The notes under the pieces: model-generated | What the model was told of the DNA's origin: nothing | The model's input: the letters and a program-made list of their open reading frames with translations, nothing else | Database searches by the model: none | Source of the DNA: an uncultured Gemmatimonadaceae bacterium | GTDB taxonomy: Bacteria > Gemmatimonadota > Gemmatimonadetes > Gemmatimonadales > Gemmatimonadaceae | NCBI GenBank assembly: GCA_963781585.1 | Contig: CAWAGQ010000009.1 | Coordinates: 1-64,000, forward strand | Direction: 5' to 3' | Length of the DNA stretch: 64,000 nucleotides | In this document: piece by piece, positions 7,597 through 44,142 of the stretch | How the letters are laid out: each line of letters begins with the position of its first letter | How positions within the stretch are numbered: position 1 is the first letter of the stretch | Program-made: the position numbers and the translations under genes

Positions 7597-9543
7597 ATGC
7601 GCCGATTCGCCTCCTTTTCCGTCTTCGCCGCGGTGGTCACGGTCGTCGGCACTGCCGCCGTCCGGGCCAACGGACCGATCGCTCGTGCGAACGCCGCCCC
7701 CCGGGAGCTGACGCCGCGTGAGCAGGCGGTGCAGGCCCTGAACCGCCTCGCTTTCGGTCCGCGGCCGGGAGAGGTCGATCAGGTGCTGCGTATGGGCGTG
7801 GACAAGTGGATCGAGGCACAGCTCCACCCGGAGCGGATCGACGACCGCAAGACCGCGGCTGTGCTGGCCGCCTACCCGAATCTCGGGCGCTCGGCGACCG
7901 ATCTCATGCGCAGTTATCCGCCCGCGGCGGCGATTCAGGCGCGCGCGCGGCTCTCGGGGACGTCCATGACGCCGCAGGACAGCACGCAGCTGCGACGCAT
8001 GCTGCAGGCGAATCGGGCGTTCGCGGGCGAGATCCTGTCGGCCAAGGTGGCACGGGCGGTGGTGAGCGATCGCGAGCTCGAAGAAGTGATGACCGATTTC
8101 TGGGAGAATCACTTCACTGTCTTCATCGGCAAGGGCCAGCAGATCCGGTACTACATTCCTGACTTCGATCGAGAGACGATCCGGCCCCACGCGCTGGGCA
8201 AGTTCCGCGATCTGCTGGGTGCCGTGGCCAAGAGCCCGGCGATGCTGTTCTATCTCGACAATGCACAAAGCGTGGCCGACAGCGGCCGACCGACGCTGGC
8301 GGCGAGTCGCGGACGGCAGGGTGGACGTGGGGTGGTGGTACCGCGACGTCCGAATCCTGCGCGCCGCCCCGGTCTGGGCGGACGGCCCGTCGGGGGCCGT
8401 GGCCAGCTGCCGCCGGACATTCGTGATCGAATCGCGCGACGCGACACGGCCGGTCTTCCCGATCGCGCCCAGGCGGTGATCCGGCAGCTGCAGCAGCGCC
8501 GGCCGCGGGGCATCAACGAGAACTACGCGCGCGAGTTGCTGGAACTGCACACGTTGGGAGTGGACGGTGGGTATACGCAGCAGGACGTGATCCAGGTCGC
8601 CAGAGCGCTGACCGGATGGAGCATCGAGCCGCCGCGTTCGGGTCGCTCCGGATTCCTGTTCCGACCCGAAGTGCACGACGCCGGCGAGAAGGTAGTTCTG
8701 GGGCGCCGCCTGAAGGCAGGGCGAGGAATCGAGGACGGCGAAGAGGTGCTCGACATTCTGGCCCGAAGCCCATCCACGGCGCGCTTCATCGCGCGGAAGC
8801 TTTGTGTGCGGCTCGTCAGCGATACGCCCCCGGCCTCGCTGGTCGATCGCGCCACTGCCGCATTCTCCCGAACCGACGGCGATATCCGCGAAGTGGTGAA
8901 GACCATCGTCACGTCACCCGAATTCTTTTCGCGCGCCGCCTTCCACACGAAAGTAAAGTCACCCTTCGAGGTCACGGTGAGCGCGTTGCGCGCGATCGGC
9001 GCCGCGGCGGACACCACGCCCCGGACGGCCGCGATCGTGGCGTTTCTCGGCCAGCCCATCTTCGGCCACCAGGCGCCTAACGGCTGGCCCGAAACCGGCG
9101 AGGCCTGGATGAACACCGGGGCGATCCTGAATCGCATCAACTTTGGACTGGCGGTTGCGGCGGGGCGGCTGCCGGGAGCGGCGCTGAGCGCGTGGCCACT
9201 CTACGACAGCCTGTCGCGGAGCAGCCGCGAGACGCAGGTGAACGGCGTTATCGACGCCCTGCTGGGGGGTGAGGCGTCTCCGGAAACGCGGGAGATCCTC
9301 AGCTCGGGAACCAACCCGCTGCTGGCCGGAGGGACGCCGGCTTCCACGGTCATGCCCGACAGCGGCGGAATGACGGGTAACGACATGACAGGCGGTGCGC
9401 GCGGACGGGGACGACCCGCACCGGGTGGGCTGCCAGGACCCGGACGCGGGGGGCGCGGTGGACTCGGTCGCATCCCCGCACTGAACGGGCTGGCGCAAGT
9501 GGTGGGACTGGCACTCGGAAGCCCGGAGTTTCAGCGAAGATAA
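7597..9543 (+). CDS. DUF1800 family protein
   Basis: LNRLAFGPRPG, MTDFWENHF, PAMLFYLDN, NENYARELLELHTLG, PNGWP, C-terminal SPEFQRR and an N-terminal signal peptide. Confidence 0.9.
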   Translation: MRRFASFSVFAAVVTVVGTAAVRANGPIARANAAPRELTPREQAVQALNRLAFGPRPGEVDQVLRMGVDKWIEAQLHPERIDDRKTAAVLAAYPNLGRSATDLMRSYPPAAAIQARARLSGTSMTPQDSTQLRRMLQANRAFAGEILSAKVARAVVSDRELEEVMTDFWENHFTVFIGKGQQIRYYIPDFDRETIRPHALGKFRDLLGAVAKSPAMLFYLDNAQSVADSGRPTLAASRGRQGGRGVVVPRRPNPARRPGLGGRPVGGRGQLPPDIRDRIARRDTAGLPDRAQAVIRQLQQRRPRGINENYARELLELHTLGVDGGYTQQDVIQVARALTGWSIEPPRSGRSGFLFRPEVHDAGEKVVLGRRLKAGRGIEDGEEVLDILARSPSTARFIARKLCVRLVSDTPPASLVDRATAAFSRTDGDIREVVKTIVTSPEFFSRAAFHTKVKSPFEVTVSALRAIGAAADTTPRTAAIVAFLGQPIFGHQAPNGWPETGEAWMNTGAILNRINFGLAVAAGRLPGAALSAWPLYDSLSRSSRETQVNGVIDALLGGEASPETREILSSGTNPLLAGGTPASTVMPDSGGMTGNDMTGGARGRGRPAPGGLPGPGRGGRGGLGRIPALNGLAQVVGLALGSPEFQRR

Positions 9544-37805: not shown

Positions 37806-39176
37806 TCACCGCGCGGTCCCCAGCTCCTCCCATAGCATGGCGACCGCCTTCATCCCTGTCCGGAAGTTCTCGTCGCTCATCCACTCGTTGGGCGCATGGG
37901 CGTTCTCTCCTGGGAGTCCAAAGCCCAACAGCAGAACGGGGCTTCCCAGGATCCGACGGAAGTCATCAACCACGGGAATCGAGCCGCCCTCACCGGCCAG
38001 CACAGGTGCCTTTCCGAACGCGCGCTGCAGCGCGCGCCGCCCCGCTTCGAAGAGCGGCCCTTCGAGCGAGGCACGCCACGGCCGGCCACCGTGAAGCGGT
38101 GTCACCCTGACCGTCACCCCAGGTGGTGCCACTCGTTGCACGTGCGCCCGCAACAGCCCGGTGATCGTGTCAGGATCCTGATCGGGGACCAGGCGACAGC
38201 TGACCTTCGCCATCGCCTTCGAGGGCAACACAGTTTTGGCTCCCTCTCCCGTATAGCCACTCAGGAGCCCGTTCACCTCGAGGGTTGGACGCGACCAGAT
38301 CCGCTCGAGCGTAGAGTATCCCGTTTCGCCACCGAGGGCGGGCCCTCCCGTTTGGCGCCGGAATGTGTCGTCATCAAACGGCAGGGTTCGGATCTGCTCG
38401 CGAACCTCGGGTTCCCACTCGCGCACGAGATCGTAGAACCCTGGAATGGCAATCCGACCCTGGCTGTCATGAAAACTGGCGATGATCCGGGCCAGCGCGG
38501 CGGCGGGATTCACGACCGCCCCGCCGTAGCTGCCGGAGTGCAGGTCGGTGGACGGCCCCTGCACATCGATCTGCACGTAGGTCATTCCGCGGAGCGAGAA
38601 GAGGAGCGACGGGAGACCCGGCGCGAACATCGACGAGTCGGAGATCACCACTCCGTCGCACGCAAGCCGCGCGGCGTTGGCTTCGATGAAACCGGGCAGG
38701 TGTTCGCTGCCCACTTCTTCCTCGCCTTCCGCCACCACAATCACGTTTACGGGAAGGTGCCCAGTGGTGGCGAGGTGCGCTTCGATGGCCTTTACGTGCA
38801 GGTAGAGCTGCCCCTTGTCGTCGACCGACCCACGCGCGTAGATGCGCCCGTTCCGCACGACCGGATCGAAGGGCGGTGATTCCCACAGGTCCAGGGGCTC
38901 GGCCGGCTGCACGTCGTAGTGGCCGTAGACCAGGATGGTCTTCGCGGCCGGTCCTGCTCCGCGCCACTCGCCGAGGACTATGGGGTGGCCGGCGGTGGGA
39001 TGGACCTCGGCGGTAAGACCGGCCGCGCGCATGCGTTGGGCGAGCCACTCGGCCGCGCGGCCTGTATCGGCCTGATGCTCGGAGCGAGCGCTGACGCTCG
39101 GAATGCGCAGGAAGTCGAACAGTTCCTCGTGGAAGCGGGCATCGTTGGCGTCGAGGAACGACAGGATCTGGCTCAT
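37806..39176 (-). CDS. M20-family dipeptidase
   Basis: LRIPSVS, YGHYDVQP, ARGSVDDKGQ, EGEEEVGS, DLHSG, GGSIP and HAPNE. Confidence 0.92.
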   Translation of the reverse strand: MSQILSFLDANDARFHEELFDFLRIPSVSARSEHQADTGRAAEWLAQRMRAAGLTAEVHPTAGHPIVLGEWRGAGPAAKTILVYGHYDVQPAEPLDLWESPPFDPVVRNGRIYARGSVDDKGQLYLHVKAIEAHLATTGHLPVNVIVVAEGEEEVGSEHLPGFIEANAARLACDGVVISDSSMFAPGLPSLLFSLRGMTYVQIDVQGPSTDLHSGSYGGAVVNPAAALARIIASFHDSQGRIAIPGFYDLVREWEPEVREQIRTLPFDDDTFRRQTGGPALGGETGYSTLERIWSRPTLEVNGLLSGYTGEGAKTVLPSKAMAKVSCRLVPDQDPDTITGLLRAHVQRVAPPGVTVRVTPLHGGRPWRASLEGPLFEAGRRALQRAFGKAPVLAGEGGSIPVVDDFRRILGSPVLLLGFGLPGENAHAPNEWMSDENFRTGMKAVAMLWEELGTAR

Positions 39177-39454
39177 GCTCGGGGCTGGAAGGGGTGGTGG
39201 CGACAGTCGGTGACGGCTGGTGATCGAACCTGCTGCATGGTGCGCGTTGGCACAATGCGTCCGGCGGGCCAACCGAGCCGGCGTTAGGCAGCCGGGCGCC
39301 GGAGGAACTGACACGCTTGCCGCCGGGTGCGACCGGGAGTCGGGACCTCAGCGGCTACCGTGCATCTAACTGGCAACATGCATATTGCCGGTCCAAGAAC
39401 GAGAGTCCGCAATTATATCTGGCATTAATACATTTGTCGGTTAGATTGCCGTCC

Positions 39455-40228
39455 GTGGCCAGGACCAATGGCTCAATGGGCGGCTCGACATACCGTCGCA
39501 ATAAACCGGAACTCCCAGTGTCCCATCAGGTTGCGGCAGACGACGCCTCGCCCCGGTCCAGCGGCACCGAGCCTGGCTCGCGGAGGGCGCTCTGCATCGC
39601 GTTCGCAAATTCGGCTCGATGGACGGAGAACCGGCCGCATATGGACAGCCTGTCCAGCGTGGATGGTGTCGCTCAGTGGCTCATGCAATCGGCGCTCATG
39701 GCTCGAACTGACGCAGATGCCGTCATCGAGAGAGCGCGTGTCGACCCCGCATCGGCCGAGCGCGTCGTCTCCATCGTGGCCCATCATCGCAAGGTCGTGC
39801 GAACGCTACTCATCAAGGCGGCAGCCGGGCCCGGTATCAGCGACTCCGATCTCGGGCCGGTGAACGAGCTCCTTGAAGACGCAATGTCCAGGTTCCGCCT
39901 CTGTGCGACTCATTCGGGGATCCGATGGCAGGCGGCCGCCGGGGCCGCCCCGTCGCGCGCGTTGGCAACGATCGCGTGGTCCGCGGTAGACGTGCTCACG
40001 ACGCCGGCCCTGGCGGTCCGGCTGCGCTGTTGCGCGGAACCAGGATGTGGAACGCTGTTTCTCGACCAGAGTCGAAACGCCTCACGCCGATGGTGTGACA
40101 TGCGCGGGTGCGGGAATCGCGCGAAGGCACGTCGTCATTACGCGCGCCGTCGTGGCGCGCGAGGCCCCGGGGAGTTGCGCCGTGTGCCGGTGGAGCCGCG
40201 GGGCGCGCAGGCGGACGGGGTGCGTTAG
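39455..40228 (+). CDS. ABATE / CGNR zinc-finger protein
   Basis: LCIAFANS and CAEPGCGTLFLDQSRNASRRWCDMRGCGNRAKARRH. Start is GTG 39455 or ATG 39476. Confidence 0.88.
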   Translation: MARTNGSMGGSTYRRNKPELPVSHQVAADDASPRSSGTEPGSRRALCIAFANSARWTENRPHMDSLSSVDGVAQWLMQSALMARTDADAVIERARVDPASAERVVSIVAHHRKVVRTLLIKAAAGPGISDSDLGPVNELLEDAMSRFRLCATHSGIRWQAAAGAAPSRALATIAWSAVDVLTTPALAVRLRCCAEPGCGTLFLDQSRNASRRWCDMRGCGNRAKARRHYARRRGARGPGELRRVPVEPRGAQADGVR

Positions 40229-40268
40229 CGGCCCCGCGCTCTTACCTTGAGGCGGCGCTCCCGCGCTC

Positions 40269-40320
40269 GGCGATGGAGTTCGCCGCGTGTGCCAGCGATC
40301 GGCTGGATGATGACTCCTGC
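40269..40320 (+). ncRNA. Fluoride riboswitch (crcB motif)
   Basis: GGCGATGGAGTTCGCC (P1 GGCGA/TCGCC), P2 CCAGC/GCTGG, and GATGACTCCT, whose ACTCC can pseudoknot with loop GGAGT. Lies upstream of a fluC operon. Confidence 0.9.
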
Positions 40321-40362
40321 GCACTTTACGCCACGAGTTGCCTTTCACCGGGACACCGGCCG

Positions 40363-40824
40363 ATGACGAGCGACATCCTCAACGAGCATCAACGACGTCA
40401 CTATCACGTCCTGCTCTCGATGCTCGCCCAGAGCGCCTCACGAGTGGAGGCGTTGTCGACCCCCCGATCGTCCGACGACTCGGCGCTGATCGAGTACCGC
40501 AACGATCTGCCGAACGAGTTTGCGGCTCGCATCGCACCGCATCTGCGATCGCTTCGAGACATGCTCGCGCGGCTGGCGACGGAACTGGACATCGCGCCGA
40601 AGCAGATCTCCCGTCGCAACTCGGTTCGGGCCATTCTCGTCTCCGAGATCGTCCGGATCGAAGACAGCATGGCCGGCGGCCTTCGCGGCTACGGCGAGGT
40701 GGACAGCCGGGTCCGGGAGCGCCTCGATCCCATGCTGGACCAGATGGTGGGGCAACTGCGCGCGATACGGCGGGTGCTCGAAGGCCACGATGGCGCACCG
40801 GCCGATCCCGTCGCGGCGGCGTGA
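40363..40824 (+). CDS. Uncharacterised helical protein, first gene after the fluoride riboswitch
   Basis: 153-aa ORF (LNEHQRRH...LRGYGEV) ending 14 nt before fluC. Confidence 0.78.
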   Translation: MTSDILNEHQRRHYHVLLSMLAQSASRVEALSTPRSSDDSALIEYRNDLPNEFAARIAPHLRSLRDMLARLATELDIAPKQISRRNSVRAILVSEIVRIEDSMAGGLRGYGEVDSRVRERLDPMLDQMVGQLRAIRRVLEGHDGAPADPVAAA

Positions 40825-40838
40825 GGAGGGGGGGGCAC

Positions 40839-41231
40839 ATGATCTTCTGGTTCATCGCGATTGGCAGCGCGTTAGGCGGCGTGAGCCGCTACGCGCTCAG
40901 CGTCGCCATACAGAATCGGTCAGGCGCGGTGTTCCCCGCCGGCACGTTGATCGTAAATGTGACCGGGTCTGTCGTCGCCGCCTTCCTGCTCCGCTACGCG
41001 CTCGAATCGCCGGCGATCACTCCGCAAACGCGTGCCCTGCTGGTGACGGGGTTCTGCGGAGCGTATACGACCTTCTCCACCTTCAGCTACGAAACGGTGA
41101 AGCTGGTGCAGGACGGCGATTATCGCCGGGCGGCACTCAACGTCGTCCTGAACGTGGGGCTGGCGCTGGTGGCCGCGTTCATCGGATTCGCCGCCGCGCA
41201 CGAAGCGCTGCAGCTGCGTCGCCATTTCTGA
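40839..41231 (+). CDS. crcB: Fluoride channel FluC/CrcB
   Basis: GSALGGVSRY, FPAGTLIVNVTGS and GFCGAYTTFSTFSYE. GGAGG RBS. Confidence 0.95.
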   Translation: MIFWFIAIGSALGGVSRYALSVAIQNRSGAVFPAGTLIVNVTGSVVAAFLLRYALESPAITPQTRALLVTGFCGAYTTFSTFSYETVKLVQDGDYRRAALNVVLNVGLALVAAFIGFAAAHEALQLRRHF

Positions 41232-41261
41232 TCGAACTGCTCAACGCGGGAGTGTCCGACC

Positions 41262-41648
41262 ATGCACGGCTTCAAGGGAGAGCGCGTTCTCATGCGAATT
41301 CATCTCGGCGAACGCGATCGGCACCAGGGCAAGCCGCTGTATCAGGCGATCGTGGAGCTGCTCCGGCAGCGCCATTTTGCGGGGGCGACTGTCTTCCGCG
41401 GCATCATGGGATTCGGCGCCAGCGCCAAGCTCCACACCGATCGGCTCGACGTGCTCTCGCTCGACCTCCCGATCGTGGTGGAGTGCGTGGAAACGGACGA
41501 GCGAATCGCGGAGATCCTGCCCGAGCTCGACAACATGATCGGCGGGGGACTCATCACGCTCGAAGGCGCCCGCGTGATCATGTATCGTCCGGAGCTGCCT
41601 CCCGATCGCCGGACGCCCAGCCACGGGATCGACAAGCCGGACGGATAG
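41262..41648 (+). CDS. DUF190 (PII-like) protein
   Basis: LMRIHLGERDRHQGKPLY, AGATVFRGIMGFG and LSLDLPIVVECV. Commonly adjacent to crcB. Confidence 0.9.
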   Translation: MHGFKGERVLMRIHLGERDRHQGKPLYQAIVELLRQRHFAGATVFRGIMGFGASAKLHTDRLDVLSLDLPIVVECVETDERIAEILPELDNMIGGGLITLEGARVIMYRPELPPDRRTPSHGIDKPDG

Positions 41649-41672: not shown

Positions 41673-43730
41673 ATGCCCAACCATCTCGCCGGCGAAACCA
41701 GTCCGTATCTGCTGCAGCATGCCGGGAATCCGGTCGACTGGTATCCGTGGGGACCGGAGGCACTGGCCCGTGCCCGTCAGGAAGACAAGCCGATCCTGCT
41801 GAGCATCGGCTACGCGGCGTGCCATTGGTGCCACGTGATGGCCCACGAGTCGTTCGAGGACGCGGAGACGGCGCGCCGGATGAACGACCTGTTCGTGAAC
41901 ATCAAGGTGGATCGCGAGGAGCGTCCGGATCTCGACTCGATCTACATGCAGGCGGTCCAGGCGCTCACCGGACATGGCGGGTGGCCGATGACGGTCTTCC
42001 TCACGCCGGCCGGGGAGCCGTTCTACGGCGGGACCTACTTTCCGCCTGACGATCGACACGGACTGCCGTCCTTCCCACGCGTGCTGGGCGCGGTGGCGGA
42101 TGCCTGGAAGAGCAAGCGCGAGTCGGTGCAGGAGACGGCGCAACATCTGCGTGAGGCATTTCGCACGACGGCATCCGCCCCCACAGCGGCCGGCGACGTG
42201 GACGCGCGAGTGCTCGACGAGGCGTATCGCGGTCTGGCAGGCGATTTCGATCCGCGCTACGCGGGGTTCGGCGGAGCGCCGAAGTTCCCGCCCACCATGT
42301 CCCTCGACTTCCTGCTCCGATATTCGACGCGCACGAACACGCGCCGGGCGCTCGAGATGGCGCTCCAAACGTATCGCGCGATGGTGCGGGGCGGGATCTT
42401 CGATCAGATCGGGGGCGGGCTGCACAGGTACAGCGTGGACGAGCACTGGCTCGTGCCGCACTTCGAGAAGATGCTCTACGACAACGCGCTGTTCGTCCGT
42501 CTGGGCGTGCATCTGTGGCAGGCGACGAAAGATCCCGAACTCCGACGCGCCGTGGAAGCCACCCTCGAGTGGGCGTATCGCGAAATGCGATCGCCCGAAG
42601 GCGGATTCTTTTCTTCTCTCGACGCCGACAGCGAGAGGGAGGAGGGGCGCTTCTATGTGTGGGAGTGCGCCGAGCTCGACGCGGTGCTGGGAGCTGACGC
42701 GGAGGTGGCCCGGACGTACTGGGGGATGACGCGGGAGGGCAACTTCGAGGGCCGGAACATTCCCTTCGTTCCGGATGAGGTGTCGGCGGCCGCCGTGCGC
42801 TGCGGCATCGATCCGGACCGGCTTCCGGTCATTATCGAGCGATCCCGAACGGCGCTGCTCGACGCGCGTGGCACCCGCACCCGTCCCGGGCGCGACGACA
42901 AGATCATCGGCGCATGGAATGGCCTCATGGTGCGTGCGATCGCCGAGTCGGCGCGGGTAATGGAACGACCGGTGGACAGGACCGCCGCACTCACTGGAGG
43001 AGAGTTCCTCTGGAGCCATCTGGTGCGCGATGGGCGTGTGGCGCGCTCCTTCAACCGTGGCATCGTGAAGGGACCGGGTTTCCTCGACGACCAGGCCGCG
43101 GTTGGCCTGGCGTTCGCCGACCTGTACGCGCTGACCTTCGATCGCCAATGGTTCGCGCGCGCGACCCTCGTCGCCGACCAGCTCGTGGCGTGCTTCCTGG
43201 ACGAGGAATCCGGGCTGCTGTTCGACACGGCGAGCGATCACGAAGCCCTTCTCGTGCGCCCACGCGATGTCGCGGACAACGCGACGCCCTCGGGAACGTC
43301 GCTGGCGGCGGAATTCCTCTGGCGGATGGCGGAATTGAGCGGCAGAGCGCCCCTCGCTGCCATCGCGACCGACGCGGTGCGTCGCTCAGCCGCGCTCCTC
43401 GGCCGCTATCCGAACGCGTTCGGCCATCTCCTCGGCGTGGCCGACGGGCTGGTGTTCGGCGCGGTGCAGGTGGCGGTGGTGGGAGCGCCGGGAGACACCG
43501 ATGTCGCCGAGCTCGTCAGATGCGTTGGAAGCCGATACGTGCCCTCGCTGGTGCTGGCAGGTGGCGAGCCGGCGGACTCGCAGGAGCCCATTGCCCTGTT
43601 AAGGGGTCGAAGGCCGGCCGGCCCCGCGACGGCCTACGTTTGTCGAGGTTACGCGTGCGATGCCCCCACCACACTACCGGCAGAGCTGGCGGATCAGCTC
43701 GCTCGTGCCACGACGGGGGAGCCCGGGTAG
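41673..43730 (+). CDS. Thioredoxin-domain protein (YyaL/DUF255 family)
   Basis: [50 protein letters not shown] and [11 protein letters not shown]. Confidence 0.92.
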
Positions 43731-44142
43731 CGGCGGCGGAATCAGGTCGGCGGGACGCCCGGGCCGGTGGTGAAGGCCGGGCGGGTTCCGCGGGCCCAAA
43801 CACTCGCGCCCGCGGCTCCAGCGTGAGACCTCGGGGGACGGGGGCCCGAGCCCTGAACGTGTCATACGAGTGATGCAATCGGGCACGTCGCTTGCCCCCT
43901 CGGTTCGCAGTTATCGTCCGTTCGGGTCGGTCGTCCCTACCCGGGGCACATGGTGACGTGGGCTCTGGCATGGAGGCGTGCCAGGGTGTTGTTATCTTGC
44001 CACAGAGTCTCTCGGCCTGCGCCTGCAGCGGATCGTCCTGGATGGCAGCTGCCCGCCGTGTGAGAGCAGGGGGTCACACGCCAGATGCGTCGTGGCGGTG
44101 TGGCCGAGCTATCGGATTCTCACGGAGTTGAGTCGACAGCGT

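Follow-up and report, generated by a model that had tools for sequence, protein, structure and literature searches.

The window analysed here is a 64,000-nucleotide (nt) stretch of contig CAWAGQ010000009.1 (positions 1 to 64,000, forward strand) from an uncultured Gemmatimonadaceae bacterium (assembly GCA_963781585.1), and its subject is a run of closely spaced plus-strand genes led by a fluoride riboswitch aptamer of the crcB motif. The aptamer (40260..40326, core 40269–40320, plus strand) is assigned by its RF01734 match and by synteny with the aptamers of related loci. Folding places a hairpin over its 3′ pseudoknot strand (40312..40339, plus strand), followed by GCCUUUC; within the expression platform this hairpin may serve as a weak terminator or as a sequestering stem. 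From the aptamer core, which extends between GGCGAUGG at 40269 and ACUCCUGC at 40320, there is a gap of 42 nt to the ATG (40363) of open reading frame 1 (ORF1; 40363..40824). ORF1 encodes a soluble protein of 153 amino acids (aa) with four predicted helices, and its description draws on a conserved start and motifs, its relatives and an AlphaFold (AF2) model. Next comes fluC/crcB (40839..41231), specifying a 130-aa fluoride channel that lies over both curated cut-offs (PF02537, E 1.6e-29, 102.7 bits against 32.9; TIGR00494, 99.4 bits against 80.45). It is followed by the gene for a 128-aa DUF190 (COG1993) protein (41262..41648), which matches PF02641 over profile positions 2–97 of 97 (E 3.7e-36, 123.7 bits against a cut-off of 23.4) and is 67–76% identical to the DUF190 of related Gemmatimonadota operons, and by that for a YyaL-like protein with an N-terminal DUF255/Thioredox_DsbH region (41673..43730; PF03190, E 1.5e-76, 256 bits). 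Intergenic gaps are 14 nt (ORF1–fluC), 30 nt (fluC–DUF190) and 24 nt (DUF190–YyaL-like gene). Checks of the reading frames and against Pfam and NCBIfam leave the coordinates, the four spacings and the fluC, DUF190 and YyaL identities as a preliminary description of this DNA had given them. The codon-position GC content of ORF1 (0.72/0.45/0.81) is the same as that of fluC, DUF190 and yyaL. A terminator scan found no terminator-like site in the 24-nt DUF190–YyaL gap, the next on the plus strand being at 43962–43987, and the YyaL-like gene is probably the last of the transcript.

The ORF1 protein carries the motifs LNEHQRRH, EYRNDL and LRGYGEV. A word-indexed search returned six relatives at 57–69% identity, with a conserved start position, and an exhaustive HMMER search of 1.84 billion representative sequences extended the family to 209 representative clusters (E ≤ 1e-3; 81 of them at E ≤ 1e-10). 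Almost all are 135–180 aa long and align end to end. In an alignment of 120 family sequences (A2) the motifs LNxxQRRH, DLP, ED and LRGYGxVDP are kept; L6, Q10, D48, L107, Y110, G111 and P123 are near-invariant, and N7, R11, R12, H13, P50, S83, A90, E100 and D101 strongly conserved. The AF2 model obtained with A2 (predicted local distance difference test score, pLDDT, 91.4; predicted template modelling score, pTM, 0.71) has helices at 8–32, 53–74, 84–101 and 115–139, with LRGYG borne on a short turn. The protein has a pI of 6.5 and lacks any hydrophobic segment. Existing annotation does not reach this family: ORF1 matches no Pfam or NCBIfam entry, even at E ≤ 1, and nothing in PADLOC, these same searches giving no GTPase domain (Dynamin_N, PF00350), and no Pfam family is common to more than one member among the 120 relatives. 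Neither the sequence nor the family profile found anything in the PDB (best E 0.15). Foldseek searches of the PDB and BFVD with the pLDDT 91.4 model returned no match at E < 1, structure searches with an earlier, shallow model (pLDDT 72.6) were likewise empty, and tblastn against a plasmid collection yielded no match. In the ESM Atlas the closest clusters are unnamed hypothetical proteins (0.90–0.92), the best named cluster, DUF3907, scoring 0.80, below a meaningful level. A relationship to DUF6062 (PF19538) was rejected, with an hhalign probability of 0.6% and no Pfam match in the 120 members. Conservation and the model show ORF1 to be a genuine, conserved cytoplasmic protein built from four long helices and belonging to an unannotated family, much as the soluble helical protein with three motifs had been described.

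Genomic loci of ORF1 relatives were located by a single peptide pattern, LRGYG[AEP]VDP, derived from a 14-sequence subset (A4); a genome scan with the close alignment A1 gave no locus. All 20 loci found (L001–L020) are confirmed by the family profile (E 1.8e-21 to 4.6e-54). Because L008 duplicates L007 (two contigs of one metagenome-assembled genome, MAG), they amount to 19 distinct loci, 16 from Gemmatimonadota, two from Verrucomicrobiota and one from Chloroflexia. An Rfam scan at gathering score, taking in 146,868 nt, detected 20 fluoride aptamers in 16 of the 20 loci, equivalent to 15 of the 19 distinct ones; neighbours were scored within 4 kb. The relative sits inside an aptamer-led gene string in 12/19, and in ten distinct loci (L001–L007, L010, L013 and L019) the aptamer ends ~19–30 nt ahead of its start. 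Elsewhere the string is arranged differently: aptamer, CPA2-type antiporter and relative in L012; aptamer, crcB, DUF190, antiporter, Usp, relative and a HEAT-repeat protein in L020; and in L017 a sub-threshold aptamer (25.1 bits, E 0.009) before MFS, Usp, relative and DUF190/CBS. crcB is present in 10/19 loci and DUF190 in 11/19, and 4-nt stop/start overlaps couple the relative to crcB (L002, L007 and L013), DUF190 (L016) or a dynamin (L018). Aptamer-linked loci spread over at least seven separate tree lineages. The ORF1 family thereby shows a strong, multi-lineage association with fluoride aptamers and fluoride-export genes and, as far as gene context can tell, belongs to the fluoride regulon of Gemmatimonadota, Verrucomicrobiota and Chloroflexota. 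The earlier proposal of ORF1 as a candidate fluoride-response factor gains support from these counts.

Further features of these loci deserve record. The L020 contig (Verrucomicrobiota; L020:591-6757) has five gathering-score fluoride aptamers within 8.3 kb and looks like a dense 'fluoride island', the five leading, respectively, an OEP-family gene, a 96-aa hydrophobic ORF, the crcB–DUF190–antiporter–Usp–relative–HEAT string, a dynamin-like GTPase and an MFS–dUTPase_2 pair. In the Chloroflexia MAG, a 504-aa fusion of DUF190 to four CBS domains stands directly 3′ of the ORF1 relative (L017:4467-5873); a second aptamer there (7982–8059, minus strand) lies ~450 nt upstream of a long ORF (region L017:5603-8059) with a weak inorganic pyrophosphatase match (24.3 bits). 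A two-domain rhodanese gene, on the same strand and 40–240 nt downstream, recurs in five related Gemmatimonadaceae loci, 3′ of DUF190 in L004, L006, L007 and L010 and 3′ of the dynamin in L003, and is a possible operon member. The YyaL-like DUF255 protein, 3′ of DUF190 in the window, is directly 5′ of the relative in L016 (L016:1877-3940); the two homologues share 38% identity over 683 aa, making this an unexplained neighbour in two gene orders. A c-di-GMP-I riboswitch (L011:115-193, minus strand, 57.3 bits) upstream of the relative's region in a Gemmatimonadaceae contig has no apparent link to it.

Turning to the window's own aptamer, an Rfam scan of the whole window at gathering score reported zero families, and a permissive local scan of 40050–40450 (401 nt) placed RF01734 at 40260–40326 with 33.8 bits (gathering score 34, E 9.1e-8), a match far beyond chance though 0.2 bit below the curated cut-off. 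The P1 stem, the conserved P1 loop and the 3′ UGAUGACUCCU tail agree with the RF01734 consensus in the cmscan alignment, the stem with its GAUGGaGUUC loop and the 3′ UGAUGACUCCUAC tail being placed at high posterior; 19 central model positions are skipped. Pseudoknot pairing is possible, GGAGU being complementary to ACUCC, and comparison with a 55-bit relative and ten aptamers shows that the 7-nt linker length and the 5-bp P3 hairpin are kept. The element occupies the 5′ leader of ORF1–fluC–DUF190, the same place as the accepted aptamers of relatives, which reach 44–55 bits in matching position in L001–L008, L010 and L013 (38–55 bits for all aptamers ahead of ORF1 relatives). On this alignment and synteny the aptamer is real, if not fully canonical, and we infer that it would function in the window's genome.

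The relatives also suggest how such a leader could work. In them the 3′ aptamer strand (UGAUGGCUCC) pairs with a downstream GGGAGCC to form a hairpin of −22 kcal/mol (z −3.9 to −5.1), followed by the U-rich AUUAUUGUG and then, within a few bases, the start codon. A terminator overlapping the aptamer is reported for crcB motifs (Weinberg 2010, PMC2864571), and the relatives' hairpin matches this design, which implies an ON switch.

A second line of evidence ties the family to dynamins. A search of longer proteins with A2 uncovered three ~680-aa proteins with Dynamin_N, and the whole ORF1 profile aligns to residues 4–150 of P0157 (hhalign probability 98.2%, E 4.6e-14), with the GTPase (Dynamin_N, at about 200–345) C-terminal to this ORF1-like domain. 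Searching with the N-terminal region of P0157 gave 53 fused clusters, all with PF00350, some of which are named 'dynamin family protein' and come from Acidobacteriota/Vicinamibacterales. The full ORF1-like domain is N-terminal in 54 of 55 fused proteins (~670 aa; hmmsearch E 1.3e-26 to 2.3e-18) and partial in the 55th. The GTPase of the fused dynamins matches Campylobacter jejuni DLP, IniA, Nostoc BDLP and mitofusin. Alignment to these starts no earlier than residue ~186, which leaves the ORF1-like domain without an equivalent in solved dynamins. By profile comparison, the ORF1 family is homologous to the domain at the N-terminus of a clade of dynamin-like GTPases of the BDLP/mitofusin class, so that a likeness to helical dynamin-attached domains, tentatively suggested in the preliminary description, is true homology.

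Unfused dynamins accompany the relatives in 5/19 loci, which completes a positive co-occurrence check among homologues for riboswitch, crcB, DUF190 and dynamin-like GTPase. These unfused proteins form one subfamily, 31–44% identical to each other and to the fused GTPase. The dynamin is 3′ of DUF190 within the same gene string in L002 and L003, overlaps the relative's start in L018, shares an aptamer-led operon with the relative and two DUF6062-type proteins in L019, and in L020 stands under an aptamer of its own and is convergent to the operon of the relative. Dynamins associated with relatives have no hydrophobic paddle or transmembrane (TM) segment (KD19 maximum < 1.8). In a maximum-likelihood tree of 69 rows (L008 dropped, 38 representatives taken as every third), a 99/90 branch separates the window ORF1 and Gemmatimonadaceae forms from L017–L020 and all fused forms; dynamin neighbours occur on both sides of this split, L002 and L003 belonging to the window ORF1's group.

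The L019 operon offers an observation of its own (L019:4317-7842). A DUF6062 protein of 500 aa is similar to the adjoining dynamin in the C-terminal half of the latter (blastp 5e-11 and 3e-8), and that dynamin itself matches DUF6062 at 435–561; on account of this resemblance, DUF6062 may be a module like the stalk of dynamins, or else a dynamin paralogue that lacks the GTPase. Homology of ORF1 to the body of the L019 dynamin was considered and rejected by comparison.

Our preferred reading, to which we assign a probability of about one half, is that the window holds an operon led by a fluoride riboswitch (aptamer, ORF1, fluC, DUF190 and probably yyaL) in which ORF1 would be a fluoride-induced adaptor or regulatory module belonging to a hitherto unrecognised branch of the fluoride regulon, its partner being either a dynamin encoded outside the window or FluC/DUF190. 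Fluoride binding would hold the 3′ aptamer strand in the pseudoknot and so block the downstream hairpin, allowing the genes to be expressed; ON-switch control of this kind may likewise operate in the window's genome. The module role is suggested by the N-terminal position of the domain in the dynamin clade together with the presence of unfused dynamins in the same riboswitch operons: in relatives, the ORF1-type protein would be a detached N-terminal module of a dynamin-like GTPase, and the window's ORF1 could be a protein–protein adaptor or regulatory module made upon fluoride stress. In this genome it may work with the FluC/DUF190 pair expressed alongside it, or with a dynamin whose gene lies beyond the window. 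The variety of neighbours favours a general role in fluoride stress over one fixed neighbour partner. A complex prediction for a DUF190 trimer with ORF1 (alignments A5 and A2), run without controls, scored 0.00, which speaks neither for nor against binding. A bolder extension, which we put forward only tentatively, is that the ORF1 domain marks an as yet unrecognised, membrane-directed branch of the fluoride response, in which riboswitches would induce a dynamin-like GTPase and this domain, fused or separate, coupling the GTPase to FluC/DUF190 or sensing fluoride or Mg-fluoride.

Several observations weigh against the adaptor reading, at the level of the family and of the window. In four of the 19 loci (L014, L015, L016 and L018) no aptamer appears even at E ≤ 1, L016 showing YyaL–relative–DUF190 and L018 dynamin–relative; in L009 and L011 the relative lacks an aptamer of its own and is convergent with an aptamer-led crcB–DUF190 or antiporter on the opposite strand. 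With one peptide pattern behind all the loci, 16 of the 19 from Gemmatimonadota and several close kin among them, the counts overstate the number of independent events. Neighbours differ from locus to locus (FluC, CPA2, DUF190, Usp and dynamin), which speaks against one obligatory partner. No dynamin lies within 4 kb in 14/19 loci, so a dynamin-only role cannot explain the family, and the 64-kb window encodes no homologue of dynamin, DUF6062, Usp or CPA2. Neither the fold nor the sequence of ORF1 gave a pointer to a known activity in the PDB and BFVD searches. In the window's aptamer the 7-nt linker reads GCGUGUG, where the consensus is uuuAACC; AAC is present in the linker of 10/10 aligned aptamers ahead of ORF1 relatives, and the window aptamer is without AACC. 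The window shares the relatives' layout, but its hairpin (40312–40339) is weak (z −1.55, like shuffles), with a poor U-tract, and a consensus promoter and terminator scan between aptamer and ORF1 found neither. The sub-cut-off score, the missing AACC and the weak hairpin mean that fluoride control in the window's genome is not assured. The preliminary description had called the aptamer canonical: a fluoride aptamer is indeed present, but the adjective is somewhat overstated because the central linker departs from the consensus.

These same features could be taken to mean that the window aptamer has decayed, ORF1–fluC–DUF190 being expressed constitutively or by read-through from an upstream gene; ORF1 would then belong to the family, at a locus that is not fluoride-switched. 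The source of such read-through would be the same-strand gene at 39317–40228 (plus), which encodes a putative stress-induced regulator with ABATE and zf-CGNR domains and ends only 31 nt before the aptamer, so that its transcripts could run on into the leader. (With its domains starting only at residue 91, the gene probably begins downstream of the listed TTG; an M20 peptidase gene at 37806–39314, minus strand, is divergent from it.) We consider decay unlikely: P1 and its loop are intact, as are the pseudoknot complementarity, the geometry of the P3 hairpin and the 3′ tail, in a match with the E value given above. Divergent fluoride aptamers under the Rfam cut-off have, moreover, been proposed (bioRxiv 10.64898/2026.10.21.760802).

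Operon order raises a different possibility, that ORF1 is a cytoplasmic accessory subunit of FluC, tuning or assisting export at the cytoplasmic face; the dynamin fusion would then put a domain for channel or membrane targeting to a secondary use. ORF1 is directly 5′ of fluC in the window, a 4-nt stop/start overlap joins the two genes in the L002–L007/L010 clade and in L013, and crcB is found in over half of the loci; dynamins devoid of paddle and TM segment would, besides, be served by a targeting domain. Relatives are found, however, without crcB beside CPA2 antiporters (L011 and L012), beside DUF190 alone (L016 and L017) or dynamin alone (L018 and L019), and beside none of crcB, CPA2, DUF190 and dynamin in L014 and L015. 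Fluc is a constitutively open homodimer that has no known partner. Both points count against an accessory subunit, which we regard as rather doubtful.

Somewhat less probable still is that ORF1 binds fluoride or a metal-fluoride complex itself, either as a sensor signalling to DUF190 or the dynamin GTPase or as an ion-sequestering buffer. Such a role would suit a family tied to fluoride aptamers whose near-invariant polar residues (N7, Q10, R11, R12, H13, D48, R65, S83, E100, D101, R108, Y110, D114 and D122) spread over all helices and the loop, and a domain N-terminal to a GTPase is in the typical place of a sensor domain. Against it, ORF1 resembles no known ion-binding fold in PDB profile and structure searches, and fluoride sensing is already supplied by the riboswitch. 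That ORF1 is a passenger, contributing nothing to fluoride tolerance and placed by an accident of Gemmatimonadota operon history, would fit the dominance of Gemmatimonadota and close kin among the loci and the four without an aptamer, but is very improbable for a protein conserved over 209 clusters whose association recurs, with different neighbours, in Verrucomicrobiota, Chloroflexia and separate Gemmatimonadota lineages.

Fluoride riboswitches have been the main guide to fluoride-resistance genes, and the ORF1 family, tightly tied to them and unannotated, thus points directly to a function that is missing; it also defines a new domain for family databases and offers a handle on DUF190, the long-uncharacterised neighbour of crcB. 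The physiological triggers of bacterial dynamins are poorly known. Here dynamins sit under a ligand-defined switch, and because of this their role becomes testable with one cheap inducer, NaF. If the membrane-directed branch were true, the ORF1 domain would be the first module to respond to fluoride at the protein level, and this dynamin subfamily would gain its first assigned physiological trigger.

Among known systems, the nearest solved structures are those of the BDLP/mitofusin-class dynamins (C. jejuni DLP1/2, 5owv; Mycobacterium tuberculosis IniA, 6j72; Nostoc BDLP, 2j68). GTPases fused to or beside ORF1 relatives match them over the GTPase domain (E 2e-20 to 9e-12) and also match the LeoA/LeoBC and Dynamin_N models. 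ORF1 differs in having no GTPase domain, its 150-residue counterpart in the fusions preceding the part that aligns with the solved proteins, and the associated dynamins differ in showing no hydrophobic paddle. DUF6062 (PF19538) is comparable as the helical protein of the aptamer-led dynamin operon L019, but it has no homology to ORF1 and resembles instead the C-terminal part of the L019 dynamin. DUF190/COG1993 (PF02641), a known neighbour of crcB, accompanies ORF1 relatives in the majority of loci and is directly adjacent in L016 and L017, both without crcB; its fold is unrelated to that of ORF1. In the covered part of the literature that mentions DUF190 with fluoride, its function is not addressed. 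Searches of the literature on COG1993, DUF6062, PF02641 and PF19538 returned unrelated works only, as did the covered part of that on crcB with dynamin, and none was found in the literature searched that links fluoride riboswitches to dynamins, including bacterial dynamin-like proteins.

The closest parallel is with the crcB-motif fluoride riboswitch operons (RF01734), described in the covered portions of PMC2864571 and PMC7266159 (Sherlock and Breaker 2020), which share a 5′ leader aptamer and a hairpin over its 3′ strand ahead of crcB or other fluoride-mitigation genes. The gene classes given there for crcB motifs are mutS, K+/Cl− transporters, formate hydrogen lyase and eriC/crcB, with no ORF1-like protein and no dynamin among them in those portions. 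Around ORF1 relatives, too, the genes under aptamers include those for CPA2 antiporter, Usp, MFS and pyrophosphatase-like proteins. The window's operon departs from this pattern in its first gene, which belongs to an unannotated protein family, and in an aptamer just below the cut-off with a diverged linker. A fluoride-riboswitch operon is thus a system of known kind, to which ORF1 as first gene and the connection to dynamins appear to be undescribed additions.

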